DNA of 64,000 bases, taken from contig CM035356.1 of assembly GCA_020137815.1 (NCBI GenBank), positions 4,402,001 to 4,466,000 on the forward strand, written 5' to 3'. Below the pieces are notes generated by a model. The model ran no database searches. It was given only the letters and a program-made list of their open reading frames with translations, and was not told the DNA's origin. The first letter of the stretch is position 1, and each line of letters starts with the position of its first letter. A program made the position numbers and the translations under genes. Source of the DNA: Hormiphora californensis (lineage: Eukaryota > Animalia > Ctenophora). This document shows, in pieces, positions 1-62,906 of the stretch.

Positions 1-1727
1 GAGCGATAAGCAGATTGAACTTCACTGAACAGTCCATTACTCTCCACGTAGTCAGTAAGCTGGTCAGCGACGCATTTCTCCAGGACCTTCGAGATGAACG
101 AAAGGTTTGAGATTGGTCGATAACTATTAAGTTCATCAGGGTCTAGGTCACTGTTTTTGTATGATGGTCGAATAACAGCAGACTTTAAGCTATCAGGGAC
201 TTCTCCTTTTGTGAGACTGGTGTTCACAATCTTAGACACTATTGGAATGAGGGCTGGAAAAGCATCGTTGACAAATGAAGTTGGCATAGGGTCCAGGGTA
301 CAGTGTTTCTTGTTCATAGCACGGACAGTAGCAGCCAGCATCGAATCGGAGACAGGTTGAAATTTCGCAAACTTTGGCAACTCTGCATCTGTTTCTAGTC
401 GCGGTGTCAGTTCAGGAAGATCGGCTGTGAAATCCGGATCAAGCTGAATTTTCTCATAGATTGCCTCGATCTTGGAAGTGAAAAAGTCGATCATCCGGTC
501 TGGAAGCCCATCTGGATCGTCAGTGGAGGGGAGTTGGGTCGGCGTCTTTTCCTTTCCGAGCAGGTGGTTTAGGATTTGATACAACGCAGCATGATTTCCG
601 TCTGCTGCCTCTAGACGCTGTTGGAAGAATTCTCTTCTGGTGCGATTGAATACAGTTTTAGTAAACCGGATCTCAGCTATGAACAACTTTTCAGCTATTA
701 GAACTTTTTCGTGGCAGACTGGTTTGTTCTTTTGCTTCTGTTTAAGGGCTTTCTTGTACGCTGACTTGTACTTCCGCTCTGCTTTTCGGCGTTTGTGTAG
801 AGCATCATAGCACTCTTGACTAAACCAGGGGGGCTTAGAGGATTCCGAAACAACTTTATCCTCAATCGGTGCTAACTGGTCAAGTATGTCTTCAAGTATG
901 GTGTTATACAGTTTGACACATTCATCGACTGATTCAGGAAGCGGAGATTGACACAGTTTTGATTTCAGAATCATATCCCGCACCAATTCAGTAGAGACTC
1001 GTTTCATCGAGCGGCCAGTGATCATTTTCTTATGTTTGATCCCGTTTGCTGAGCCACAATGCATTTTGAAGTCAACTAAGAAGTGGTCGGGTACTTCAGG
1101 GGTAGGTGTGACATTCAAAGAATCAAGAAGTGGGACATCTTTTGTCAGTACTAGATCAAGGGTGCCCCCGTGGAGGTGAGTCGGTTCTCGAACATGCTGT
1201 ATCCAACAATGATCCTCAAGTATTTGCAAGAAACTTTGGGCGAATGGACAGAGCAGTTTTTCCACGTGAACATTAAAGTCACCAGTTATCAGATGATGTC
1301 CAGACTTCGATGAAAACACTGAAAGAAACTCCTCGAACTCCTCAAGGAAGATCGCCTGTTTGGAAGAATCAGGGGGACGGTAGATAACAGCAACTCTCGT
1401 CAGGTCTATTCCAGGTCCATCAAGTATTGCTTCCAGCAACTCAAAGCTCGAGAAGACTTTACGAGATTTACATCGTTTCACTTTTAGTTCTTTCCTGTAA
1501 ACAATGGCAACTCCACCACCTCTGCTACCGCGAGGAACACTGAGCAGCTTGTAGGGGAATTCTTCTATCTCCTTTGATAGAGCAGATTCTTTTGGAGATA
1601 GCCAAGATTCGGTTACACACATCACATCTATTTCCTGATCCATAGTTAGTACCAAGACTTCCTCTGTTTTGTTGCGAATCGAGCAGCAGTTGATGTTTCC
1701 GAAACTAAGAGAGGGAACTTTAGACAT
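1..1727 (-). CDS. LINE ORF2: apurinic endonuclease plus start of reverse transcriptase (partial)
   Basis: Hand translation from ATG 1727: NINCCSIRNK, VTESWL, RGGGVAIVY, IYRPP, ITGDFN, PTHLHGGTLDLVLT, PDHFLV, then pre-RT YRPISNLSFISKVLEK and QSAYR. Appears open to the window edge. Confidence 0.92.
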   Translation of the reverse strand, partial: MSKVPSLSFGNINCCSIRNKTEEVLVLTMDQEIDVMCVTESWLSPKESALSKEIEEFPYKLLSVPRGSRGGGVAIVYRKELKVKRCKSRKVFSSFELLEAILDGPGIDLTRVAVIYRPPDSSKQAIFLEEFEEFLSVFSSKSGHHLITGDFNVHVEKLLCPFAQSFLQILEDHCWIQHVREPTHLHGGTLDLVLTKDVPLLDSLNVTPTPEVPDHFLVDFKMHCGSANGIKHKKMITGRSMKRVSTELVRDMILKSKLCQSPLPESVDECVKLYNTILEDILDQLAPIEDKVVSESSKPPWFSQECYDALHKRRKAERKYKSAYKKALKQKQKNKPVCHEKVLIAEKLFIAEIRFTKTVFNRTRREFFQQRLEAADGNHAALYQILNHLLGKEKTPTQLPSTDDPDGLPDRMIDFFTSKIEAIYEKIQLDPDFTADLPELTPRLETDAELPKFAKFQPVSDSMLAATVRAMNKKHCTLDPMPTSFVNDAFPALIPIVSKIVNTSLTKGEVPDSLKSAVIRPSYKNSDLDPDELNSYRPISNLSFISKVLEKCVADQLTDYVESNGLFSEVQSAYR

Positions 1728-2430
1728 ATCTAGTTTTTTGCCTGTTCTTCAATGAGGGATAGACGGAATGGGCACAGCCGTTCTCCACTGTGATGATCTC
1801 TGGCTCGTGTTTTAAAAGTTTGAGACTTGTTGCAATTGACACAGAACTTCTTATCTCGGTTAGTACAGGTTTTTACATCGTGGTCTTCACCGCAGAGTTT
1901 ACATACCAGAACAGTGCTAGTACAGTCCGCTGTTTTGTGTTTAAACCCATGACACTTGAAACACTGGGGCACATGAAATCGCTCAACTACATTCAGTCGG
2001 GACCAGCCATAGTAAACCTTTCCTGTTTCGAGAAGGCGTTGTTGGAGGGGAACAGGGATTCTTAGGGCAACTGTACACTTATCTTTGTTCTGGAAGTGGC
2101 TCTTTATGTAAACCACTGTTACATCCGGTGACAGCAAACATGGGTTTTTCTGTTGCAGAGTTTTCAGTACTCGATCTTTGGCCTCTTCCGTTGATAAGTT
2201 TTCTATGTTTTCTGGAACATGAAGAATCGTGACCTTGGCAGTTCCAGAGACCACAGATATGGTGGCATCCTGGGGGATTGAATTGGTGACCAGATCCTTG
2301 ATCGACTCAATATCAGTTGATTCAGGAAAACCCACCCTGATTTCAGCAGCATGATTTGTATCCATGAAGAGCATAGGAGTCTTTGCCAGACAAGTGTTTA
2401 GGTCCTTCTGAGAGAGATGGTCGAAAAAGG
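1..2430 (-). mobile_element. L2/CR1-group non-LTR retrotransposon (5'-truncated ORF1 plus ORF2 running off the window)
   Basis: ORF1 with CCHC knuckles is followed after a 2-nt spacer (TAG-AT-ATG at 1732-1725) by an APE-RT ORF2. Confidence 0.93.
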
Positions 2431-3375: not shown

Positions 3376-5342
3376 TCACTCTACATTGTCAATACCACAC
3401 TCCCCACTGCTACAAGTATGGTGGCTAGCTTTCTTTAAGTGCTCCGCTCTCCCTCTCAACATCTCAACCTCACTCCGTACATTCTTCTGCGCATTTTCCT
3501 CGGCAAATTGTCGAAATTCTCGGGTCGCGAACACAAACTTCCTGTCCACAAACCGGGACATAATCTGAAAAAAAGAATGGTAAAAATTAAGCTAATAGCT
3601 ACTAGAGATCGGACTAAGCCTGTATGGTCGCGGCGCCAGACAGGGCTAGCAGTAATAATTACCGCGGCTCTGCGTTCACAGAACTCCAGCTCCGGAACAT
3701 GTTCATACTCCTTCCTTATCTTCCTGGCGTATAAAGTGTACTCGATGGGGTTAGCTCCCAGAATGGCAAGGTCAAAGTCCAGGAAATAATGGATGTCGCG
3801 GGCTCTACCACTGTCTGACTCATGTTCCTAGGGAGGAAGGAGGTTGTTCAGCTAAATTTACACTTCTCTGTTACAGCTACAATTACAGTAGTAACACAGA
3901 AGTAACACAGCAGTTTTAGTAAACCTAGACGAGGTAGGGGGAAGATATTGGACCGGACAGAGGATTAGCAAAACTAGACGAGGTAGGGGGAAGATATTGG
4001 ACCGGACAGAGGATTGGGGAATCCTGACGTCTGTGTGATGGTTTTAGATTGAAAGGGGGGGGGGCTCATCAATCTGCAGAAACGTCTGTGTGATGGTTTT
4101 AGATTGAAAGGGGGGGGGCTCATCAATCTGCAGAAACGTCTGTGTGATGGTTTTAGATTGAAAGGGGGGGGGGCTCATCAATCTGCAGAAACGTCTGTGT
4201 GATGGTTTTAGATTGAAAGGGGGGGGGCTCATCAATCTGCAGAAACGTCTGTGTGATGGTTTTAGATTGAAAGGGGGGGGGCTCATCAATCTGCAGAAAC
4301 GTCTGTGTGGTGGTTTTATTTTGGAGAGTGGTTCTATATCTGCCAACAAATCTCTAGTACCTCTGTGTGATGTCCAGTGCTAATCTCTAGTACCTCAGTG
4401 TGATGTCCAGTGCTAGTCGTTGTAATCATCTCAACCACATCCCTGATGAGATCGCTCTCCAGATTTAGGTCCTCAGCACACCTCTCAAACGCCTCCACAC
4501 TTTTCTCCTCATTGTCTGCTCGCTGCATGGTGGACACATGCAGTTATTAATTATTATTAATTATTAATTATTATAATGAATTTCCAACACCCCTTACTCA
4601 AAAATTCAAAAAACAATCAGTCATTGTTTGACAAGAGAGCCTCGTTCCTAGAAGGAATGATTCATAGAAGCCTAAGGAATGAGGTTCTTACCTTGGGATC
4701 ATACTCATAGTCATGGAAGAAAATGGAAAAGAGGACTGTTTTTGGAAAGGTGAGCTCCTGGACAAAGTGCTTGTGGTTCAGTATCATTTGGTATATGTGT
4801 TCTAGGTTGTGATACTTCCTGCAGGGATTTGTTATTGTTAGGGGGGTGGGGGTGGTTGGGGTTGTTGGGTTGGCGGGCTGGGGGGAGTGTGGGGGGGGGG
4901 GGCGGGGTGGTGGCGGGTATATGTGTTCTAGGTTGTGATACTTCCTGGGGGATTTGTTATTGTTTGTTAGGGGGGTGGAGGGGGGTTATTCAGGGGTTGA
5001 GGGAGGGTTCATGTTCTTCAGGGGGTGGGGGGGGGGCGATCGAGGCTCACGAAGTGAAAATAGGTTGCAATAGATCCAATTATGATACCTATGTGGTTGT
5101 GTGTATTGGGATATAATATCGTGGAACCATTCTCCAATCACCAACTTGTCGTCTGAGAAGGAACCTGCCAGGGTCTGCCACTCTGGAAACACAGTGATGT
5201 TATGTCGATGTTATATGCGATACTATTGTCATTGAGTAAAAAAGCACAAATTGAAAAACTGACCTATCCAAACCATTTCCTGTTTCATATCAATAAATCC
5301 CCGGTCCCTTTTGCTCCGTTTTTCACCCATCTGCTGGTCCAT
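3376..5342 (-). CDS. Predicted metal-dependent HD-superfamily phosphohydrolase (COG4339-like), 6 coding exons
   Basis: Phase-compatible GT-AG exons at about 5342-5264, 5183-5089, 4818-4692, 4522-4394, 3827-3663 and 3564-3376. Motifs PHRKYHNLEH, FFHDYEYDPKRADNEEKS and FLDLDLAILG...YARKIRKEY. Confidence 0.85.
4028..4312. repeat. About 54-bp minisatellite, about 5 copies, intronic
   Basis: Unit CTGTGTGATGGTTTTAGATTGAAAG(n)CTCATCAATCTGCAGAAACGT. Confidence 0.92.
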
Positions 5343-6064: not shown

Positions 6065-13293
<7,229 letters not shown>

Positions 13294-14190: not shown

Positions 14191-14429
14191 CCTCACTTTC
14201 TCTCCTCTATAGAAGTCCAACTATGCACCTTACCAAGACCGGCTTGCTATGGTACTATTCGATGTCCAAGTATCTACTCTGGTCGGCCCCTCGTCCGTCA
14301 AAACTCAGATACTGTTCCGGAGAATCCTGAATGGGGTTGGTGAGTTAGGGATGAAGCACTATGTGGTATGTGGTCATGTCCGATTTTGAGTTAGGGGTGA
14401 AGGATACATCAATAATGGGGATTGGGGTT

Positions 14430-17062
14430 GTTGAGTTAGGGGTGGAGAATCCTGAATGGGGTTGTTGAGTTAGGGGTGGAGGAGACATCAAGAATGGGGT
14501 TGTTGAGTTAGGGGTGGAGGAGACATCAAGAATGGGGTTGTTGAGTTAGGGGTGGAGGAGACATCAAGAATGGGGTTGTTGAGTTAGGGGTGGAGGAGAC
14601 ATCAAGAATGGGGTTGTTGAGTTAGGGGTGGAGGAGACATCAAGAATGGGGTTGTTGAGTTAGGGGTGGAGGAGACATCAAGAATGGGGTTGTTGAGTTA
14701 GGGGTGGGGGAGACATCAAGAATGGGGTTGTTGAGTTAGGGGTGGAGGAGACATCAAGAATGGGGTTGTTGAGTTAGGGGTGGAGGAGACATCAAGAATG
14801 GGGTTGTTGAGTTAGGGGTGGTGGAGACATCAAGAATGGGGTTGTTGAGTTAGGGGTGAAGGAGACATCAAGAATGGGGTTGTTGAGTTAGGGGTGGAGG
14901 AGACATCAAGAATGGGGTTGTTGAGTTAGGGGTGGAGGAGACATCAAGAATGGGGTTGTTGAGTTAGGGGTGGAGGAGACATCAAGAATGGGGTTGTTGA
15001 GTTAGGGGTGGTGGAGACATCAAGAATTGGGTTGTTGAGTTAGGGGTGGAGGAGACATCAAGAATGGGGTTGTTGAGTTAGGGGTGGAGGAGACATCAAG
15101 AATGGGGTTGTTGAGTTAGGGGTGGTGGAGACATCAAGAATGGGGTTGTTGAGTTAGGGGTGGAGGAGACATCAAGAATGGGGTTGTTGAGTTAGGGGTG
15201 GAGGAGACATCAAGAATGGGGTTGTTGAGTTAGGGGTGGAGGAGACATCAAGAATGGGGTTGTTGAGTTAGGGGTGGAGGAGACATCAAGAATGGGGTTG
15301 TTGAGTTAGGGGTGGAGATATCAAGAACGGGGTTGTTGAGTTAGGGGTGGAGGAGACATCAAGAATGGGGTTGGTGAGTTAGGGGTGGAGGAGACATCAA
15401 GAATGGGGTTGTTGAGTTAGGGGTGGAGGAGACATCAAGAATGGGGTTGTTGAGTTAGGGGTGGAGATATCAAGAACGGGGTTGTTGAGTTAGGGGTGGA
15501 GGAGACATCAAGAATGGGGTTGTTGAGTTAGGGGTGGTGGAGACATCAAGAATGGGGTTGTTGAGTTAGGGCCCCCCTATAATAGGGGTGGAGGAGACAT
15601 TAAGAATGGGGTTGTTGAGTTAGGGGTGGAGGAGACATCAAGAATGGGGTTGTTGAGTTAGGGGTGGAGGAGACATCAAGAATGGGGTTGTTGAGTTAGG
15701 GGTGGAGGAGACATCAAGAATGGGGTTGTTGAGTTAGGGGTGGAGGAGACATCAAGAATGGGGTTGTTGAGTTAGGGGTGGAGATATCAAGAACGGGGTT
15801 GTTGAGTTAGGGGTGGAGATATCAAGAACGGGGTTGTTGAGTTAGGGGTGGAGATATCAAGAACGGGGTTGTTGAGTTAGGGGTGGAGATATCAAGAACG
15901 GGGTTGGTGAGTTAGGGGTGAAGGAGACATCAAGAATGGGGTTGTTGAGTTAGGGGTGAAGGAGACATCAAGAATGGGGTTGTTGAGTTAGGGGTGGAGG
16001 AGACATCAAGAATGGGGTTGTTGAGTTAGGGGTGGAGGAGACATCAAGAATGGGGTTGTTGAGTTAGGGGTGGAGGAGACATCAAGAATGGGGTTGTTGA
16101 GTTAGGGGTGGAGGAGACATCAAGAATGGGGTTGTTGAGTTAGGGGTGGAGGAGACATCAAGAATGGGGTTGTTGAGTTAGGGGTGAAGGAGACATCAAG
16201 AATGGGGTTGTTGAGTTAGGGGTGGAGATATCAAGAACGGGGTTGTTGAGTTAGGGGTGGAGGAGACATCAAGAATGGGGTTGTTGAGTTAGGGGTGGAG
16301 GAGACATCAAGAACGGGGTTGGTGAGTTAGGGGTGGAGGAGACATCAAGAATGGGGTTGTTGAGTTAGGGGTGAAGGAGACATCAAGAATGGGGTTGTTG
16401 AGTTAGGGGTGAAGGAGACATCAAGAATGGGGTTGTTGAGTTAGGGGTGAAGGAGACATCAAGAATGGGGTTGTTGAGTTAGGGGTGGAGGAGACATCAA
16501 GAATGGGGTTGTTGAGTTAGGGGTGAAGGAGACATCAAGAATGGGGTTGTTGAGTTAGGGGTGAAGGAGACATCAAGAATGGGGTTGTTGAGTTAGGGGT
16601 GGAGGAGACATCAAGAATGGGGTTGTTGAGTTAGGGGTGGAGGAGACATCAAGAATGGGGTTGTTGAGTTAGGGGTGGAGGAGACATCAAGAATGGGGTT
16701 GTTGAGTTAGGGGTGGAGGAGACATCAAGAATGGGGTTGTTGAGTTAGGGGTGGAGGAGACATCAAGAATGGGGTTGTTGAGTTAGGGGTGGAGGAGACA
16801 TCAAGAATGGGGTTGTTGAGTTAGGGGTGGAGGAGACATCAAGAATGGGGTTGTTGAGTTAGGGGTGGAGGAGACATCAAGAATGGGGTTGTTGAGTTAG
16901 GGGTGGTGGAGACATCAAGAATGGGGTTGTTGAGTTAGGGGTGGAGGAGACATCAAGAATGGGGTTGTTGAGTTAGGGGTGGAGGAGACATCAAGAATGG
17001 GGTTGTTGAGTTAGGGGTGAAGGAGACATCAAGAATGGGGTTGTTGAGTTAGGGGTGGAGGA
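14430..17062. repeat. 38-bp minisatellite array, about 69 copies
   Basis: Unit GAGTTAGGGGTGGAGGAGACATCAAGAATGGGGTTGTT, with 35-bp variants (GGAGATATCAAGAACGGGG). Confidence 0.97.
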
Positions 17063-20360: not shown

Positions 20361-46215
<25,855 letters not shown>

Positions 46216-52304: not shown

Positions 52305-55300
52305 ATGGGGGACCAGGAGCTAAGTCAGCTCCTGAATATGGGCTTCGGGTACGAGGAAAGTACAGCTGCTCTGGAATCCTTGTAAAAACAATGTCGCTGA
52401 AGCAGTGGCTTATTTGACGGAGAAGGCTGTTGCTGTTGTGCCCTATGGTCCAGATAATAAGAAAGAAACTGCCATGGAGATTGAAACCTTCGATGAAACT
52501 GAGGAATTTCCCAAACAAGGTACTGCACCTGAGAGTTGTCTGTCTCCAGATACATATTTACTCAACTTAATGAACTTTTGATCTTGATTTATATTTCAGT
52601 CTAGTTTTGACAAAATCAATTTATATTTCAGTTTTGATGAATATAAAAGGTCGGATTTACAGTGAGAATTGGTCGATGACCTACGTAGAGGGTGATGGTA
52701 TTCTAAAATGTATTAAATCTGCGATAAAACTAGCTGAGAACGACTCCATCCAATCTAATGAAGATTGCAAAAAGTTTGTTTTTGAGGTAAACCTAGCGTG
52801 ACTTTGTTTAATTCCAACATGATAATATTGGATGCTAACACTAGGTTAACTTTCAGGTGTTACCCGTGGCCCTTAACAAACTCCTAACAAACACTACAGT
52901 ACACGACAGCGAGCTACAAGATGCTATACTGAATATAACTACCACTTATCTTACACTTGCTGTTACCCAACTTAGACATAGGTCAGTAAGACATTTTAAT
53001 ATCGCTTAGTTTGAGTCGCTTTGACATCGTATGAACAATTCAACGCTTAGTCTGTTGTGGGGGAGGGGGTTGAATTATTTGTAAGTGTAGAGACTTTGAA
53101 ATTGTATAAACCAATTAATATTATTTTAACTTGTAGGTTAGAAGTTAGCACACTGAAACTGTTATCTACCATTATGGATCCAAGATGCGAGTTCAACTTT
53201 AGAAACAGATCGAAACGAACCAAACATAATTCTAGCCAGGTAACTGCCACACAATTCGAATCATTCGCCATTCTACTGTATCTTCAACAGTTTTAGTTTC
53301 ATCAGTTACATCAAAATAATACGTTTTAAATTACCATATATATTCCAGGGAGTGCTATACGGTCAGTGTCCGTCTCGAACCACGTTCAGAGACCCGTACG
53401 GCTGGCTGGTGACTCTAATTAACGCTTTTGGAGCTGCTGGGGGATTCCAGGCCATACTCTCTCATGTGGTGGACCCACCTCCCAGTCCGTTCCTTCTGGC
53501 TCATATTCTAGCACCGTGGGGGAAATGTATAGAGTATGTGATACCAGATACAATAGCACCCATACTGAAACAACTCATGAAGGTATTGAGGGGGGCATTA
53601 GCTTGTTGCTAACTGTTTTACCCACTGAGACTTACCTTGGGTAATATCCCCCCTTCTTCTATCCTCCTGTGTTGTCTCTCTCATGTTATTGCGCGCGCTA
53701 CGTTTAGTTATGGAGAGGGGACACTGTACCCACTGAGACTTACCTTAGCTCGGTGTATTTTCTGTTTTCTGATACCACTAAAACGATCGTATATTTTCGA
53801 CACCATTATTACCCCCAAACATCCTCTCATTATATAATCGCTTTTTCCTAACCCCCTTTACTATAGCTACACCATTATAATTCCACCCTCCCCCACTCCT
53901 CCCTCCCCCACTCCTCTATCAAACTCCCAATTGCCTCTGTTAGAACATAATAAACTCCCAGCTCGTCTCCCCCCGTTAGACCGCTGAGAGAGCTACTAAG
54001 AGAGGCTCTCTCTCCCATGACTAACCTCTGAGAGAGCTACTAAGATCAAGAGAGGCTCTCATCCCCTGATTAATCCCCAATCCCCCGTTAGACCTCTCCC
54101 CCCTGATTAATCCCCAAATCCCCCGTTACACCTCTGAGAGATCAAGAGAGGCTATCTCCCCTGACTAATCCCCCAATCCCCCCGTTAGACCACTCTCCCC
54201 TGACTAATCCCCCAATCCCCCCGTTAGACCACTCTCCCCTGACTAATCCCCCAATCCCCCCCGTTAGAGGTTCTCTCCCCTGACTAATCCCCACATCCCC
54301 CCCCCCCCCCCCCCCGTTAGAGGTTCTCTCCCCTGACTAATCCCCCCAATCCCCCCGTTAGACCACTCTCCCCTGATTAATCCCCCAATCCCCCCGTTAG
54401 ACCACTCTCCCCTAATTAACCCCCCGATCCCCCCCCCCCCCCGTTAGACCTCTGATTAATCCCCCAATCCCCCCCGTTAGACCACTCTCCCCTGATTAAT
54501 CCCCCAATCCCCCCGTTAGACCACTCTCCCCTGATTAACCCCCCGATCCCCCCCCCCCCCCGTTAGACCTCTGATTAATCCCCCAATCCCCCCGTTAGAC
54601 CACTCTCCCCTGATTAATCCCCCAATCCCCCCGTTAGACCACTCTCCCCTGACTAATCCCCCAATCCCCCCGTTAGACCACTCTCCCCTGACTAATCCCC
54701 CAATCCCCCCGTTAGACCACTCTCCCCTGACTAATCCCCCAATCCCCCCCCGTTAGAGGTTCTCTCCCCTGACTAATCCCCCAATCCCCCCCCCCCCCCC
54801 CGTTAGAGGTTCTCTCCCCTGACTAATCCCCCCAATCCCCCCGTTAGACCACTCTCCCCTGATTAATCCCCCAATCCCCCCGTTAGACCACTCTCCCCTG
54901 ATTAACCCCCCGATCCCCCCCCCCCCCCCGTTAGACCTCTGATTAATCCCCCAATCCCCCCCGTTAGACCACTCTCCCCTGACTAATCCCCCCCCAATCC
55001 CCCCGTTAGACCACTCTCCCCTGACTAATCCCCCAATCCCCCTCGTTAGACCACTCTCCCCTGACTAATCCCCCAAACCCCCCCCCCCCCCGTTAGACCT
55101 CTCTCCCCTGACTAATCCCCCAAACCCCCCGTTAGACCACTCTCCCCTGACTACTAGAGGCTCTCTCCCCCCTGACTAATCCCCCTCCCGTTAGACCTCC
55201 ATCGAAGTGATCCGAGATATGGGATGTGAGGACTATAAAAGCAAAGAGATTGGGCTGGTTTGCGATCTGATATTATCCATGAAATACATATGTACAGGAT

Positions 55301-56057
55301 GCGGTCAGCAATTTAATATGAGTGTAAGTTAAATACACGTTACTACTACACGTGACACTACACGTGTCATGTCATTTCCACTTCCTACCTGTCAACTAGA
55401 TATTACATACATGATATACATGTCAGTACGCCCCAACTAAATCTAACATCACATATAATGTTACCCTTCCCAACACCACTAATACCTGATGTTACAGTTT
55501 ACACTAATTAATCCCAATTACTACAGTTTACACTAATTAATCCCAACTACTACAGGACGCTAATTAATCCCAATTACTACAGGACGCTAATTAATCCCAA
55601 TTACACTACAGGACGCTAATTAATCACAATTACTACAGGACGCTAATTAATACCAATTACTACAGGACGCTAATTAATCCCAATTACTACAGGACGCTAA
55701 TTAATCCCAATTACTACAGGACGCTAATTAATCCCAATTACACTACAGAACGCTAATTAATCCCAATTACTACAGGACGCTAATTAATCACAATTACTAC
55801 AGGACGCTAATTAATCCCAATTACTACAGGACACTAATTAATCCCAATTACTACAGGACGCTAATTAATCCCAATTACTACAGGACGCTAATTAATCCCA
55901 ATTACTACAGGACGCTAATTAATCCCAATTACTACAGGACACTAATTAATCCCAATTACTACAGGACGCCCAGGGAATGGATGTAATGAGGCTGGAACAA
56001 ATTCAAAAGATGCTCAAGACATCCCATTTTAATGCGAGGATGAACGCCCTCAATGAG
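52305..56057 (+). CDS. USP24: Ubiquitin carboxyl-terminal hydrolase 24-like, N-terminal 7 exons (UBA plus helical region); +1 frameshift in exon 1
   Basis: Exons 52305-52519, 52632-52786, 52857-52981, 53137-53239, 53348-53582, 55195-55323 and 55965-56057. They encode LSQLLNMGF...KNNVAEAVAYLT (UBA), RIYSENWSM, DPYGWLVTLINAFGAAGGF and MRLEQIQKMLKTSHFNARMNALNE, collinear with USP24 as recalled. The exon 8 start (TLRIVEET) is present only as a tandem array. Confidence 0.82.
53970..55194 (+). repeat. About 39-bp minisatellite equal to branch point plus acceptor plus exon start of USP24 exon 6
   Basis: Unit ACCACTCTCCCCTGACTAATCCCCCAATCCCCCCGTTAG, about 30 variable copies; the last reads CCGTTAG|ACCTCCATCGAA. 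Confidence 0.92.
55495..55964 (+). repeat. 27-bp minisatellite equal to acceptor plus first 5 nt of USP24 exon 7
   Basis: Unit TAATTAATCCCAATTACTACAG|GACGC, about 17 copies; the last continues GACGCCCAGGGAATG. Confidence 0.94.
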
Positions 56058-56689
56058 GTACTTGCCTAGTATATATATAGCTAGACTGTGTAAAGGAGGG
56101 TTAGAACAATGAGGTACAGCCATTATACAATTGGATTATTTAATAATTTTGCGGGATTGTTCGTGATGGGGTGGCACTGCCACCGTGGCAGGGCATGTAG
56201 ATTGTTCGGCTGTCCCTCCCAATCTTTCCCACACCCAATTAGTTGAAGTGTTAATTAGATAGAGTTTACAGGATAGAGTTTCAACTAATGACAGGTGTTA
56301 GCTTGTTGCTTGATAGTATCAAGGTGATGTTATATCCCTCTCTCATGTTTCCTGTAACTCAATATTTTACCCCCTTTCTAACTCCTGGCACCTCCCCTCT
56401 CTTATAACACCCCTAACACCCCCTTTAAAACACTCGATCCTGGCACCTCCCCTCTCTTATAACACCCCTAACACCCCCTCTCTAACACCCCTAACACCCC
56501 CTTTCAAACACCCCTAACACCCCCTCTCTTATAACACCCCTAACACCCCCGTTCAAACACCCCTAACACCCCCTTTAAAACACCCCTAACACCCCCTCTC
56601 TTATAACACCCCTAACACCCCCGTTCAAACACCCCTAACACCCCCTCTCATACACCCCTAACACCCCCGTTCAAACACCCCCGTTCAAA

Positions 56690-58812
56690 CACCCCCTTTC
56701 AAACTCCCTCAGACACTGCGAATAGTGGAGGAGACAAGAGACATGAACATGAAACACCCCCTTCTAACACCCTCTCCCTCAGACACTGCGAATAGTGGAG
56801 GAGACAAGAGACATGAACATGAAACACCCCCTTCTAACACCCTCTCTCTCAGACACTGCGAATAGTGGAGGAGACGAGAGACATGAACATGAAACACCCC
56901 CTTCTAACACCCTCTCCCTCAGACACTGCGAATAGTGGAGGAGACAAGAGACATGAACATGAAACACCCCCTTCTAACACCCTCTCCCTCAGACACTGCG
57001 AATAGTGGAGGAGACGAGAGACATGAACATGAAACACCCCCTTCTAACACCCTCTCCCTCAGACACTGCGAATAGTGGAGGAGACAAGAGACATGAACAT
57101 GAAACACCCCCTTCTAACACCCTCTCCCTCAGACACTGCGAATAGTGGAGGAGACAAGAGACATGAACATGAAACACCCCCTTCTAACACCCTCTCCCTC
57201 AGACACTGCGAATAGTGGAGGAGACAAGAGACATGAACATGAAACACCCCCTTCTAACACCCTCTCCCTCAGACACTGCGAATAGTGGAGGAGACAAGAG
57301 ACATGAACATGAAACACCTCCTTCTAACACCCTCTCCCTCAGACACTGCGAATAGTGGAGGAGACAAGAGACATGAACATGAAACACCCCCTTCTAACAC
57401 CCTCTCCCTCAGACACTGCGAATAGTGGAGGAGACAAGAGACATGAACATGAAACACCCCCTTCTAACACCCTCTCCCTCAGACACTGCGAATAGTGGAG
57501 GAGACAAGAGACATGAACATGAAACACCCCCTTCTAACACCCTCTCCCTCAGACACTGCGAATAGTGGAGGAGACACGTGACATGAACATGAAACACCCC
57601 CTTCTAACACCCTCTCCCTCAGACACTGCGAATAGTGGAGGAGACAAGAGACATGAACATGAAACACCCCCTTCTAACACCCTCTCCCTCAGACACTGCG
57701 AATAGTGGAGGAGACAAGAGACATGAACATGAAACACCCCCTTCTAACACCCTCTCCCTCAGACACTGCGAATAGTGGAGGAGACGAGAGACATGAACAT
57801 GAAACACCCCCTTCTAACACCCTCTCTCTCAGACACTGCGAATAGTGGAGGAGACGAGAGACATGAACATGAAACACCCCCTTCTAACACCCTCTCCCTC
57901 AGACACTGCGAATAGTGGAGGAGACAAGAGACATGAACATGAAACACCCCCTTCTAACACCCTCTCCCTCAGACACTGCGAATAGTGGAGGAGACAAGAG
58001 ACATGAACATGAAACACCCCCTTCTAACACCCTCTCCCTCAGACACTGCGAATAGTGGAGGAGACAAGAGACATGAACATGAAACACCCCCTTCTAACAC
58101 CCTCTCCCTCAGACACTGCGAATAGTGGAGGAGACAAGAGACATGAACATGAAACACCCCCTTCTAACACCCTCTCTCTCAGACACTGCGAATAGTGGAG
58201 GAGACAAGAGACATGAACATGAAACACTCCCTTCTAACACCCTCTCCCTCAGACACTGCGAATAGTGGAGGAGACAAGAGACATGAACATGAAACACCCC
58301 CTTCTAACACCCTCTCCCTCAGACACTGCGAATAGTGGAGGAGACGAGAGACATGAACATGAAACACCCCCTTCTAACACCCTCTCTCTCAGACACTGCG
58401 AATAGTGGAGGAGACAAGAGACATGAACATGAAACACCTCCTTCTAACACCCTCTCTCTCAGACACTGCGAATAGTGGAGGAGACGAGAGACATGAACAT
58501 GAAACACCCCCTTCTAACACCCTCTCCCTCAGACACTGCGAATAGTGGAGGAGACGAGAGATATGAACATGAAACACCCCCTTCTAACACCCTCTCCCTC
58601 AGACACTGCGAATAGTGGAGGAGACGAGAGACATGAACATGAAACACCCCCTTCTAACACCCTCTCCCTCAGACACTGCGAATAGTGGAGGAGACGAGAG
58701 ACATGAACATGAAACACCCCCTTCTAACACCCTCTCCCTCAGACACTGCGAATAGTGGAGGAGACGAGAGACATGAACATGAAACACCCCCTTCTAACAC
58801 CCTCTCCCTCAG
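56690..58812 (+). repeat. 70-bp minisatellite, 30 copies, equal to acceptor plus start of USP24 exon 8
   Basis: Unit CCCCTTCTAACACCCTCTCCCTCAG|ACACTGCGAATAGTGGAGGAGACAAGAGACATGAACATGAAACA, preceded by degenerate AACACCCCT repeats at 56385-56700. Confidence 0.96.
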
Positions 58813-61800
58813 ATACATTTGCAGTTTCATATTTGTTTCATTTTGAATGCTCTGTTACACTGACATACACCCGTCTAAGTCTCTCTTTAATCCTAAATCT
58901 ATCAATTTACAACCGCATCGCCTAGTCTGGTTCAGTCATTCTGTCAAATAGTGCTCCTTTCCTGTATCTTTCAACACAGTACCTCTAATCCCCACTGTTT
59001 TTACCCCTTGTGTTCGCTGAGTTAACATTTATCCCTATTTGTTAACCTAGTTGATTTTACCTACATTTTCTAACACCTGTCATCCCTCTCCCACCACTGC
59101 ATGTCATGAACTTAGTATGGGTACTTTCTGGCGACGAGGAGGTGGGGAGGAGCTGGGTGGTCTACTGCTGCCGCTGCTGCTGGCTCTACTGGGCGCAGGT
59201 TTGCTGTTTAACCACAACCCCCTTTTCCCTATCTGACATTAACCTTAATCTTCTAGTCATTTGTAATTGCTCTATATGTAACCCTGGCCCTCGCGGACTC
59301 AAAGTTTTGTATAATAATGTTCAGGGTTTGGTTAGTCCGGGTAATCTCAATTCGGTCTCACCGCCCCTGAATATGATCAAGGTTTATGAGGCCCAGGATT
59401 ATGTGTATGACAATTCCATAGATATAGTCATTCTTAATGAAACTTGGCTGAAGAGCAAGGTTTCTTCTACTTCTATATTCCCTGTTAACTACAAATTTTT
59501 TAGACTAGATCGCTCTGGGTACACCCACCCCTGTGATCCTTCAAACCCCTCCAGGTTTAGGGAGAATGGAGGTGGTGTGCTCATTGCTCACCGGGAGAAC
59601 ATTAATATAACCAGTTTTAAATTCGCCAAACCTAATGCTAAGGCGGAGCTTCTTACCATTTTTCTTACTCTCTCATCCGGAAAGAAACTCTGCCTTTCCA
59701 CCTTCTATCGGGTGGGGACACTTGGGGATGTTAACTTTGCTGAGTTCAAGCAGCACTTCGATTGTCTGTTCTCAGCGAGAAGCATCTCCAAGCACATTCT
59801 CATTGGCGATTTTAACTTTTCCCAAGTTAACTGGCCAGCTTCATATCCTCGCAATCGTGTGGAGGAGCTATTTCTATCTTATCTCTTGAGTGACCTCGGT
59901 CACACCCAGCTTATTAGCTCCCCCACACATTGCAAGGGACGTACACTTGATCTTATGTTTACTAACGATCCAGCGTGTGTCACCGATATCAGTGTTCTTG
60001 ATCAGCATAGTTTCTGTTTTAGTGACCACTATCCAGTGTCATTTACTATTAACATTGATATCGGTGGTACCCGTCAGGCTCGGAGAAACATTAGATTATA
60101 CGACAAAGGAGACTATGAGAACATGTCGGCTGATTTGAGCTTTATTGACTGGGTGGCTGAGTTCAATGGTGATATTAATTACAATGTCAATAGATTTAAC
60201 ACCATTTTGTACAGTCTCCTAGACAAGCATGTACCTTCCAAGGCTGTCAAGCCTATTCTTCTCCCCATCTGGTACGGTCATGAATGTGAGAGTGCTAGGG
60301 TGAGAAAGGAGAATCTTAGAAATAGGTGGAAGGAATCTAAATCTCAGACCGACTATGACAATTACAAAGCTGCTAGAAGTCATTTCAAGAATGTGTGTAA
60401 CTCCAGTTCTCGACTATACTGTGACATCGAGGATTGTGACACCGTTAGTAGGAAATTTTGGAGACAGGTTAAAGTTACCTCCAAGTCTACCAGAATACCA
60501 CTCATTGTCAATGATGGTGAGGTGTTTAGGTCTGATTTGGAGGACCAAGCCAACCTTTTCAATAAGCAATTTGCCTCCAATTTTTCTGAATCGAGTAGCT
60601 ATGATATTGATGTTAACAGCAATAACCCCTCCATTCTTTGTGACTTCTCGGCTAGCTCTGTGTACAACGTCTTATCTAAACTCAATGCTCGCAAGGGTCC
60701 TGGTCCCGACAACCTACATAGTATTATTTTCAAGAGATGTGCGGGAGCTCTGGCTTATCCCTTGTCTCTGCTCTTTGAGCAGGCGTACGGCGGCGGCGGA
60801 CTTCCGTCTATCTGGAAATCTGCCAATGTTGTTCCTGTTCACAAGTCTGGAGACAAGAGGGATGTCCGGAACTACCGCCCTATCTCTCTGACCTGCATTG
60901 CGAGTAAAGTTTACGAGAGAATTGTTACACAGCGACTATTAGAACATTGTTACGACAAAATTGACAGTAGACAACACGGATTCTTGCCGGGGAGGTCTTG
61001 TCTGACCCAGCTTGTTTCTGTGTTTGACGACCTAGTTCTGACCGACAATGACAAACGTACCTCTGACCTTATTTATTTTGATTTTAGTAAAGCTTTTGAT
61101 TCCGTTAATCATGATTTAATTCTGCATAAACTTAAAAATAGATTTAATATAGATGGCAATATGCTTTCCTTTATTCGTAATTATCTCTGTGATCGCACTC
61201 AACAAGTGGTTATTGGGGGGAAGTTCTCTTCTAGTCTCAGGGTACTATCCGGTGTCCCACAAGGTAGTATCCTAGGCCCCCTTTTATTTGTACTATTCAT
61301 TAATGACATCACTGAGTGTGTGCATGGTGAGTGTAAGATAGCCTTGTATGCTGATGATCTGAAACTCTGGGCTAAGATCGCTAGTATGCAGGATCACATT
61401 GACATGCAGATCTCTGTTGACAATCTTCACAGCTGGTCAGTCATTAACAAGATGAAGTTTCATCCTAGTAAGTGTAAAGTTGTTTCTACCCGCTCATCAA
61501 GATGTGAGGCTACATGGGGCGAGCTCCCCTGTTTCCTACATTCCTATGTTCTAGGTGATACTGTCTTGGATAATGTCACTGTTCAGAGAGATCTGGGTGT
61601 ACTTGTCAATAACAAACTTTCATGGACTGACCATACTGAGCACATTCTTGAACGCTTCACTGACAGATTCAACCTAGTTCGTAGAACAACCCACTTTGTT
61701 GGCAACCCTCATCAACGCCGAACTCTGTTTCTTACTTTGGTTCGATCTCTTCTTGAGCACTGCTCTCCAGTTTGGGCTCCCCACTCTGTTGGGTTGCTCG

Positions 61801-62906
61801 ATTCACTGGAAGCTGCACAGAAGAGGTCAATCAAGTGGGTACTAGGTGTCTCACACCTCACTAGCTGGAGTATCCAGATCTATCATAGTCACCTTATCAC
61901 ACTGAATATCCTACCTATTAATCTTCAATTCAAGTACAATGACATGAAACTTATGTATAAGGTTATGACTGGTTTAGTACCTGTGATACTTCCAAATTAC
62001 CTGTATATCAAGTCTCTAGACGATGTTTCCTACACTACTAGATCCAATAGGGATATCATTGACAACACTGACTTTACTACTTTATGCTGTACTGTCAAAC
62101 CTTCTAGTGCTGTTTTCCGGAATAGCTATTTCTATCGTTCTTTCTCCTATTGGAACTCTCTTCCTTTATCTATCAGACAGTCACCCACTTTTCCCACATT
62201 TTGTCATCGGCTCAAGTTACACTTGTTTAATTCTATCTCTATCCCTAGCCCCTTCCCGTAACCGTGGTTTTCAGCGTATCTGTTGCCCTCTTCCAGCAGC
62301 GGTCATCGGCGGTGGATTCACCTTCTTCTCCCCTCCCTTCTCCTAGCTAGCAGCCCCTCTACATTTATAAAGCAGTGTGGTGGTGCTTGAGCAAGATGGC
62401 CTTAACTATAAACACTCTTGTATCTGGACTGTATTATAATTTATCTATTACTTGACTAGGTCCCTAACTAGATATTGTCTACTCCTACTTGAGTGGCTTC
62501 TCTTTTACTTGACAGTTTTATGTCGTTGTTCTCGTAACTTATTAACTTGTTGTATTTTGTTTGTGTGTGCTGTGTGTGTTGTGAGTATGTGTGTTGTGAG
62601 TATGTGTGTTGTGAGTGTGTGAGTGTGTGAGATGTATCCATTTGATTTGTGAACCTATATGTTTTTTCTTTTTTCGGCTTAGTATTTAAATCTAACCTTC
62701 CTATTTAGATATCTAATAATTTTACTTTAGTCGTGTGTCTAATTTTAGCTTCTATTTTTAGTAAGAATTATTATGAGTAAGAGCGTTTTGGGTGCCACCT
62801 GTAATTGTGGCTAAGCTGCGTTGGTGGAGCCCGTGGACGATGATATTTAACGTTTTATTTATATTGTTTGTATACCAGTTCTAAATGTTTTCCCGATAAA
62901 AAAAAT
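58813..62906 (+). mobile_element. CR1-group LINE with one intact ORF and about 640-bp 3' UTR
   Basis: Intact APE-RT ORF and an A-rich tail near 62897-62906. Boundaries are approximate and no TSD was seen. Confidence 0.85.
59106..62261 (+). CDS. LINE endonuclease-reverse transcriptase (1051 aa)
   Basis: APE motifs YNNVQG, LNETWL, GGGVLI, IGDFN, TLDL and SDH. RT motifs YRPISL, QHGF, YFDFSKAFDSV, GVPQGSILGPLLF, YADD and RDLGV. Confidence 0.96.
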   Translation: MNLVWVLSGDEEVGRSWVVYCCRCCWLYWAQVCCLTTTPFSLSDINLNLLVICNCSICNPGPRGLKVLYNNVQGLVSPGNLNSVSPPLNMIKVYEAQDYVYDNSIDIVILNETWLKSKVSSTSIFPVNYKFFRLDRSGYTHPCDPSNPSRFRENGGGVLIAHRENINITSFKFAKPNAKAELLTIFLTLSSGKKLCLSTFYRVGTLGDVNFAEFKQHFDCLFSARSISKHILIGDFNFSQVNWPASYPRNRVEELFLSYLLSDLGHTQLISSPTHCKGRTLDLMFTNDPACVTDISVLDQHSFCFSDHYPVSFTINIDIGGTRQARRNIRLYDKGDYENMSADLSFIDWVAEFNGDINYNVNRFNTILYSLLDKHVPSKAVKPILLPIWYGHECESARVRKENLRNRWKESKSQTDYDNYKAARSHFKNVCNSSSRLYCDIEDCDTVSRKFWRQVKVTSKSTRIPLIVNDGEVFRSDLEDQANLFNKQFASNFSESSSYDIDVNSNNPSILCDFSASSVYNVLSKLNARKGPGPDNLHSIIFKRCAGALAYPLSLLFEQAYGGGGLPSIWKSANVVPVHKSGDKRDVRNYRPISLTCIASKVYERIVTQRLLEHCYDKIDSRQHGFLPGRSCLTQLVSVFDDLVLTDNDKRTSDLIYFDFSKAFDSVNHDLILHKLKNRFNIDGNMLSFIRNYLCDRTQQVVIGGKFSSSLRVLSGVPQGSILGPLLFVLFINDITECVHGECKIALYADDLKLWAKIASMQDHIDMQISVDNLHSWSVINKMKFHPSKCKVVSTRSSRCEATWGELPCFLHSYVLGDTVLDNVTVQRDLGVLVNNKLSWTDHTEHILERFTDRFNLVRRTTHFVGNPHQRRTLFLTLVRSLLEHCSPVWAPHSVGLLDSLEAAQKRSIKWVLGVSHLTSWSIQIYHSHLITLNILPINLQFKYNDMKLMYKVMTGLVPVILPNYLYIKSLDDVSYTTRSNRDIIDNTDFTTLCCTVKPSSAVFRNSYFYRSFSYWNSLPLSIRQSPTFPTFCHRLKLHLFNSISIPSPFP

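Follow-up and report, generated by a model that had tools for sequence, protein, structure and literature searches.

Tandem copies of 3' splice sites at three consecutive junctions of a ctenophore USP24-like gene resemble amphioxus mirage minisatellites

Mirage minisatellites are known from amphioxus (lancelets), in which they have been described from Adh3, the globin genes BflGb6 and BflGb9, troponin C and PGBD5 (PMC3087553, PMC3902484). There the arrays are unstable in length and leave splicing undisturbed, with regular RT-PCR products (PMC3087553, PMC3902484). The class itself is already known, and the apparent novelty of the present case is its host: within a stretch of 64,000 nucleotides of the ctenophore Hormiphora californensis ("the window"), a USP24-like gene carries three consecutive arrays of acceptor copies. 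Our literature search found no ctenophore mirage. This would be the first, apparently, and the habit would reach one of the earliest-branching animal lineages.

As in the amphioxus mirages, tandem copies lie across the exon-intron boundary and reach into the intron with their AG mostly intact, several arrays occur per gene, and the mature mRNA appears normally spliced where tested; units of 27-70 bp fall within the 10-72 bp range of Adh3. Apart from the ctenophore host, the differences are copy numbers exceeding the 3-6 units of BflGb6, two units with no more than 3-5 bases of exon sequence, and a third array that adjoins a LINE. All three units cross the boundary, the exon contributing about 42 bases to the unit of array 3 and 3-5 to those of arrays 1 and 2. 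The copies lie by the authentic junction and carry its splice signals, the authentic exon of array 3 being outside the window. Regular splicing is seen as use of the last AG of intron 5 in two of three sequencing runs only, from RNA donors whose alleles may differ from the assembly.

Competition between identical acceptors has been studied on engineered substrates with duplicated 3' splice sites, in reports that cite earlier work of Reed and Maniatis from 1986. In vitro the downstream site wins by 6:1 (co-transcriptionally) or 25:1, because the piece of exon behind the upstream site lacks enhancers, and a lone upstream duplicate captured roughly 1 in 7 co-transcriptional events (PMC1450099). 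In another study duplicated acceptors could also be occupied together, which inhibited splicing (PMC5389562), so that 17-30 decoys may carry a cost. The locus shares with these beta-globin substrates (PMC1450099, PMC5389562) the identical rival acceptors and the preference for the site beside the full exon, but two sites in human extracts there compare with 18-31 naturally occurring ones in this ctenophore. Finally, the same amphioxus literature contains a model of intron gain by tandem duplication of a proto-splice site (PMC3087553). The origin by duplication across a junction is alike, whereas no unit here has a usable donor. The features of the locus, all on the plus strand, are as follows:

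52305..52519, +, exon 1 (UBA domain) of the USP24-like gene, with a +1 frameshift at 52380-52383; donor confirmed by an RNA joint
52632..52786, +, exon 2; 5' end from an RNA joint, 3' end from frame and GT only; tblastn match to USP24
52857..52981, +, exon 3; 3' end from an RNA joint, 5' end from frame and AG only
53137..53239, +, exon 4; both ends from RNA joints
53349..53582, +, exon 5; supported by RNA and by named USP24/FAF-like proteins that are 34-41% identical
53962..55194, +, array 1 in intron 5, called from repeats: 26 decoy acceptors and the used one (AG ends at 55194); RNA uses the last AG
55195..55323, +, exon 6; RNA contigs leaving exon 5 run 30 bases into it as a loose end; USP24 alignment
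55497..55964, +, array 2 in intron 6, with 17 decoys ahead of the last acceptor, whose use is suggested by frame and homology
55965..56057, +, exon 7; Pfam PF25010 (UBP24/USP9X/USP9Y ARM repeat), E=1.5e-7
56406..56708, +, degenerate C-rich repeat derived from the branch and pyrimidine segment of acceptor 3; periods 23/49/72, sharing unit positions 41-60
56704..58812, +, array 3: 30 units of 70 bp and 31 acceptors, each unit with about 42 bases of exon-8 head and 28 bases of intron end
58813..62261, +, LINE retrotransposon adjoining the last acceptor; 5' boundary (58813) placed by the end of the array

Pfam, alignments and tblastn agree that the gene is a ctenophore USP24-like gene, with a UBA domain at the N-terminus (Pfam E=0.0015, under the curated cut-off) followed by the USP24/USP9 ARM region. 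Exon 2 matches USP24 with E values of 1e-6 and 4e-7, compared to 0.42 for a FAF-X-like protein, and the exon-8 head within array 3 lengthens the USP24 alignment by 8-9 residues in all three proteins tested. No USP24 sequence past this exon-8 head was found in the window, and the remainder of the gene lies outside it or is lost. Among 72 candidates, none was a longer homologue of exon 5, in a search confined to proteins of up to 2000 residues, which is shorter than USP24; fibronectin-type repeat proteins among the phmmer matches (P0003 and similar) were unrelated and set aside. The initial annotation had assigned the gene to USP24 and placed donors at 53582, 55323 and 56057: these are the correct exon ends, and spliced RNA contigs confirm that the gene is transcribed in the species.

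Tandem repeats were called with TRF (score threshold 50), which reported period 39 with 24.3 copies at 54155-55153 (score 995), period 27 with 17.0 copies at 55504-55969 (score 815) and period 70 with 30.1 copies at 56704-58813 (score 4073). The three arrays are unrelated to each other, and every unit combines the 3' end of an intron with the head of the next exon. We counted 27 acceptor copies in array 1 (53979-55194), 18 in array 2 (55497-55964) and 31 in array 3 (56712-58812); the unit lengths of 39, 27 and 70 bp proposed earlier were thus correct, while the accompanying copy numbers of about 30, 17 and 30 slightly overcounted array 1. Its units are C-rich, 32-59 bp long, degenerate at the 5' end of the array, and include 3-5 exon bases each. 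Array 2 consists of units of 27-29 bp, likewise with 3-5 exon bases, and its main unit is devoid of any GT. The expected anatomy of branch motif, pyrimidine tract, YAG and exon head is mostly present, almost every unit listed having a branch-like motif at a distance of 15-37 nt from its AG; exceptions are a few degenerate array-1 units without such a motif, and array 2, whose tract is interrupted by A and is no real pyrimidine tract, yet still obtains a good acceptor score from a matrix trained on the window. Structured variants and higher-order blocks are found among the copies. In another haplotype (P0001), intron 5 is different in its 5' part, so intron 5 appears labile; variant blocks and this different haplotype could at most be indirect signs of variability in array length.

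Spliced RNA joins 53582 to 55195, i.e. it takes the last AG of array 1, in contigs from two of three seawater runs of one study. This exon 5-6 joint is the only one of the three array junctions so far observed in RNA. Among the matches listed, 11 of 12 near-identical RNA contig pieces differ by 0-2 bases and one by 3. Being derived from wild samples, the contigs may represent alleles without the arrays; rare isoforms are lost in contigs, and nonsense-mediated decay (NMD) would hide such isoforms, so the absence of any upstream-AG junction from these contigs argues weakly. A query with the first unit of array 3 and its flanks (56680-56795) found no contig in any of the three runs, a blank which we do not count as evidence; the third run (X3) gave no contig for the other exons either. 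In the case of exons 6 and 7, splicing at any AG but the last would lose the conserved frame, in agreement with the initial annotation.

The decoys are not inferior sites: 17 of the 26 in array 1 score at least as high as the used site, and most of those in array 2 are identical to it from -22 to +5. Decoys as strong as the used site imply that the acceptor must be selected by context beyond the site itself, a point on which the initial annotation was right. It had also implied a conflict with the first-AG rule. This rule holds downstream of the chosen branch point, and since each copy has its own branch motif no splicing rule is broken. Array 2, with 17 decoys, mostly identical from -22 to +5 and spaced by 27 bases, is a clean natural test substrate that isolates the role of exon context in picking one acceptor among equals. 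Acceptor arrays also mislead gene prediction. The best donor score among in-array GTs is 1.1, compared to 2.8-9.6 for 35 real donors, and use of the arrays as micro-exons or for recursive splicing was rejected because no unit has a usable donor; existing introns were lengthened, with no indication of a new intron or micro-exon.

We consider it probable that the arrays are mirage minisatellites, likely of slippage and unequal-exchange origin and likely tolerated, the spliceosome picking the copy beside the complete exon. A first duplication may have arisen at a microhomology of 2-4 bases between exon head and intron, with replication slippage and unequal exchange as the likely route of expansion. 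Growth would proceed into the intron only, as exon-side copies would be purged; the last AG would be chosen via exonic enhancers and the downstream donor, and any leak would be cleared by NMD. Since spliced RNA takes the last array-1 copy, the extra copies are likely tolerated clutter and not a regulatory device. No regulatory job is needed to explain the arrays. The initial annotation had held special regulation to be required, which is not supported: duplicates in vitro favour the site of the enhancer-bearing exon (PMC1450099), and amphioxus mirages do not disturb splicing (PMC3087553, PMC3902484).

Regulation by array length is unlikely. It would have the decoys divert transcripts to NMD, with a selected copy number setting USP24 output. 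Such a function could draw on the strength of the decoys, on the stop codon that follows within 3-30 codons of each of the 43 decoys in arrays 1 and 2 (predicting NMD-type transcripts), on the share that a single upstream duplicate takes in vitro (PMC1450099) and on the presence of three arrays in one gene. However, the branch motif contains TAA/TGA, so that decoy stops come free; comparable structures also occur at donors and in unrelated genes, in the long array at 14423-17062 hardly any copy still has its AG, RT-PCR in amphioxus gave regular splicing, and the RNA contigs lack upstream-AG junctions, a weak point for the reason given above. We regard a selected dosage function as decidedly improbable. 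If copy number did alter mRNA output, expression variation in highly heterozygous marine invertebrates would have a source that has so far been overlooked.

The three arrays had been placed before the next USP24 exon in each case, which applies to arrays 1 and 2; the last AG of array 3 (58812) runs straight into the LINE, and the rest of exon 8 is absent from the window. The LINE has an uninterrupted frame of 1068 codons (59055-62261) with endonuclease and reverse transcriptase. In exon 1, named USP24 proteins align on both sides of the frameshift, four bases occupying the space of one codon, and the shifted frame meets a stop at codon 27; the initial annotation had made no mention of this frameshift. 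Given the shift and the position of the LINE, directly behind acceptor 3, the copy in the assembly may be dead. The initial annotation had considered an untranscribed dead paralog; the gene is spliced in wild samples, yet the frameshift and the LINE keep part of that concern alive. The assembled copy could be a dead allele or a truncated USP24 duplicate, in which arrays lengthened under relaxed splicing selection, a scenario compatible with a mirage origin. The intact LINE, the lack of later USP24 exons past the exon-8 head up to 64000 and the clustering of three long arrays in one gene point in this direction. On the other hand, exons 2-7 are open and in frame throughout, and the RNA contig pieces listed are near-identical to the assembly; equally long junction arrays exist at other loci of the window (40818-42181; 14423-17062); the frameshift may be an assembly error, and exon 1 has a later ATG; and exon 8 may sit past the window, behind nested insertions. 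Furthermore, the exon portion of array 3 shows three variants, none of which changes the encoded residue; the chance of this, reckoned post hoc, is about 0.001-0.08, and the pattern would be consistent with sequence exchange with live exon-8 alleles. Taken together, a dead copy appears possible but rather unlikely.

That the arrays, or the join between array 3 and the LINE, are assembly artefacts is very improbable. Mis-joins are common at repeats, the end of array 3 is abrupt, a coding exon holds one single-base indel, and the DNA evidence comes from the assembly. Assembly duplication errors do not, however, make structured variants and higher-order blocks, and the 3.2-kb LINE frame and exons 2-7 are free of indels.

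Junction copies are present at 8 of 54 other splice junctions in the window, in five of the six unrelated neighbouring loci examined, and among these 54 junctions all lie on the intron side and none on the exon side. These similar copies suggest a local mutational habit that is not specific to USP24. Two are long arrays: 44 donor copies at 40818-42181 and 70 acceptor-derived copies at 14423-17062. The excess of junction copies in the window is about 2-fold, with p values that depend on the settings (0.03, 0.09, 0.03 and 0.044). If junctions are independent, and with a rate of two long arrays per 54 junctions, three consecutive long arrays are expected at about 5e-5 per triple, and three consecutive junctions with copies of any length at 1.5e-3 to 3e-3, a rarity that weighs against the preferred reading. 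A bolder combination of these elements, which we hold to be improbable, would make the arrays live, length-variable decoy sinks, whose leak grows in proportion to copy number and is removed by NMD as a heritable dosage dial of USP24, with array 3 trading sequence with working exon-8 alleles and junctions being true repeat-seeding hotspots.

Pfam assigned no family to 10 of 12 neighbouring exons. A stretch of 21 bases from the exon-8 head had no exact match in metagenome contigs, and the one locus that a protein scan of these contigs returned from 597 stretches (L001) has 63% GC and was dismissed as a chance match. G-quadruplex instability was rejected as a general cause, being high only in array 1 and absent in array 2: the share of G4-prone 25-mers is 0% in array 2, 17% in array 3 and 84% in array 1 (template strand), compared to 6.5% window-wide.

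The tandem acceptor copies in introns 5, 6 and 7 of the USP24-like gene are real and dense. They belong to a repeat class already described, here in a phylum new to it, and are most likely tolerated clutter. Mirages, tandem repeats across exon-intron boundaries, were named in amphioxus Adh3, where the units measure 10-72 bp; they also occur in globins, troponin C and PGBD5, and are length-unstable while regular splicing is undisturbed (accessible portions of PMC3087553 and PMC3902484). No report of a ctenophore mirage was found in the literature searched, most subscription papers being outside its reach, and the word 'minisatellite' is absent from the main text of the Hormiphora genome paper in the portion available.

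Tandem acceptor arrays of the USP24-like gene (Tandem Repeats Finder)
54155-55153, + strand: array 1, intron 5, period 39, 24.3 copies
55504-55969, + strand: array 2, intron 6, period 27, 17.0 copies
56704-58813, + strand: array 3, intron 7, period 70, 30.1 copies

Tandem Repeats Finder bears out the initial annotation, which had described three mutually unrelated arrays. Its description of the unit as an acceptor plus the start of the exon holds for all arrays, with the exon share limited to 3-5 bases in arrays 1 and 2; it is about 42 bases in array 3. Split at the acceptor, arrays 1, 2 and 3 contain 27, 18 and 31 acceptor AGs, and among the units viewed the branch-like motif lies 15-37 bases before the AG in nearly all. 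Read by eye, each unit has 2-4 bases common to exon head and intron where the two join, as expected of slippage. The gene itself is identified by exon 7, which matches Pfam PF25010 (UBP24/USP9 ARM repeat; E 1.5e-7), by a weak Pfam match of exon 1 to UBA, and by exons 2 and 5-7, which align to proteins named USP24 or USP24-like of a sea spider, a crinoid and a horseshoe crab. The best named match of a mucolipin exon at another place in the window is in the ctenophore Bolinopsis microptera (82%), and the other five of six matches reach 64-66%; the DNA is therefore most likely from a ctenophore of another species.

Introns 5, 6 and 7 are all in phase 0. Every decoy, that is every AG before the last one, meets a stop, after 3-22 codons in array 1 (26/26) and after 3-30 codons in array 2 (17/17); the exon end is reached from the last AG alone, in line with the earlier statement that for exons 6 and 7 the last AG gives the conserved frame. 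From all 31 AGs of array 3 a stop follows after 16-60 codons. With an acceptor matrix trained on 30 other acceptors of the window, a small set, 17 of the 26 decoys of array 1 score at least as high as the used site (the last AG, 55194), and most decoys of array 2 score 12.2 vs 13.4 for the last acceptor. Decoys are thus about as strong as the used site, and acceptor sequence is not what chooses it. We rejected the units as micro-exons because every GT inside them scores below the weakest of 35 real donors.

Once a branch point has been chosen, the 3' splice site is usually the first suitable AG after it. The conflict with this rule implied by the initial annotation disappears, since every unit has its own branch point and the rule is unbroken. 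According to PMC1450099, the downstream of two duplicated 3' splice sites was favoured in vitro 6:1 in transcription-coupled splicing and 25:1 when the RNA was made beforehand, the reason being the lack of enhancers in the upstream piece of exon; in a second study splicing went to the distal site only, and joint occupation of two sites inhibited splicing (PMC5389562). In the arrays, the enhancers and donor of the complete exon would select the adjoining AG, and any leak to decoys would presumably be removed by NMD. With 17-30 decoys such a leak could carry a cost. Tuning of dosage by array length, which had been proposed earlier, is possible but unsupported, and we regard it as very improbable.

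RNA evidence comes from two seawater runs of a single study, whose RNA label is a guess and which share 20% of sampled words. Introns 1, 3 and 4 are absent from the contigs of both runs, cut at GT..AG, and the contigs are therefore spliced transcripts. In both, the exon 5 contig runs on into exon 6 (its first 30 bases), so that donor 53582 is joined to the last AG of array 1, one of the junctions the initial annotation had proposed to check; contigs lose rare isoforms, and the sampled wild animals possibly lack these arrays. One loose end past exon 5 measures 213 bases, with room for exon 6 (129) and 84 more; 30 letters of this end are visible and stop short of the exon 6-7 junction. A third run gave no matching contig, and the first unit of array 3 had none in any of the three runs. 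The metagenome protein P0001 represents another haplotype; it extends from exon 5 into intron 5, which there apparently lacks a stretch of about 108 bases found in the window. Transcription of the locus, which had been in question, is indicated by spliced contigs in wild samples, although the assembled copy may be damaged.

That the assembled copy is indeed damaged seems to us rather unlikely, and would be compatible with tolerated clutter. Four bases replace one codon inside the UBA of exon 1 (52380-52383), a +1 frameshift leading to a stop at codon 27; RNA coverage of the spot is unreliable, and the frameshift is an assembly error or a null allele. Within array 3 the exon-8 head adds 8-9 residues to the USP24 alignment in all three proteins, but sequence past the last AG gives no extension, and tblastn found no later USP24 sequence within the window. 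The third acceptor adjoins an intact sense-strand LINE (58813-62261) with an unbroken frame of 1068 codons. Exon 8 may lie past 64000 behind nested insertions, or be lost. A second LINE-like stretch, seen by eye on the reverse strand, opens the window (1-2400). A long-dead locus, however, is at odds with the open exons 2-7 and with the variants of array 3 (56713-58812): the three in the exon part of the 70-bp unit all prove synonymous (Thr, Arg by a double change, Asp), whereas each of the three in the intron part would alter a residue in that frame. Counting the two single changes alone, such a pattern has a chance of 0.08; including the double change lowers it to about 0.001, both values being post hoc and resting on few variants. 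The commonest exon-part variant occurs mainly in copies 24 and 26-30, at the end of the array. The pattern suggests that array 3 may exchange sequence with working exon-8 alleles.

Arrays are not specific to USP24. At neighbouring loci we mapped 54 junctions (27 of mucolipin by homology, 27 read by eye using frames and GT/AG), excluding three more candidate acceptors that could not be placed. A junction-spanning copy is present on the intron side of eight (acceptors 3/26, donors 5/28) and on the exon side of none of the 54. Against 59 of 830 intronic AG/GT control positions, this gives a Fisher p of 0.044 (0.03-0.09 under other settings), a weak excess, coming from one window with non-independent positions and some exons called after the repeats had been seen; conversely, about 20 of the 59 control hits belong to these very junction arrays, as their far ends. 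Two of the eight copied junctions are long (40818-42181 and 14423-17062). At these rates, three copied junctions in a row have a rough probability of 1.5e-3 to 3e-3 if any copy counts and of 5e-5 if only long arrays do; this is unusual, yet could be met in a scan of a whole genome or where instability is local.

Junction repeats at neighbouring loci
40818-42181, - strand: 44 tandem 31-bp units, last 10 exon bases plus donor (donor at 42171)
39747-39823: two-copy donor duplicate in the same gene
14423-17062, - strand: 38-bp unit repeated about 70 times, with the acceptor at 14326 as its source; branch motif kept, AG lost in nearly all
35873-36073 and 37069-37131, + strand: duplicated donor (105 bp, two copies) and acceptor (31 bp, two copies) of a rhodopsin-family GPCR gene (Pfam 7tm_1)
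4349-4415, 4818-4975 and 12680-12801, - strand: junction sequence present in two copies, within an HD-domain-like gene and at a donor of mucolipin
7868-8066, - strand: 10-bp unit in 20 copies, similar to the mucolipin donor close by at 8097; failed the junction-copy test

The gene with the long donor array, which we take to be CD36/SCARB-like, matched no Pfam family, and neither did the presumably HD-domain-like gene. Exon 14326-14234 looks non-coding and is possibly a 5' UTR exon of mucolipin. Elsewhere in the window, an AT-rich satellite of about 5-6 kb (25100-31000), with a near-palindromic 10-mer base and higher-order periods, is flanked by mirrored repeat blocks (~22970-23220 and ~32340-32560), and the whole resembles a large element with inverted ends.
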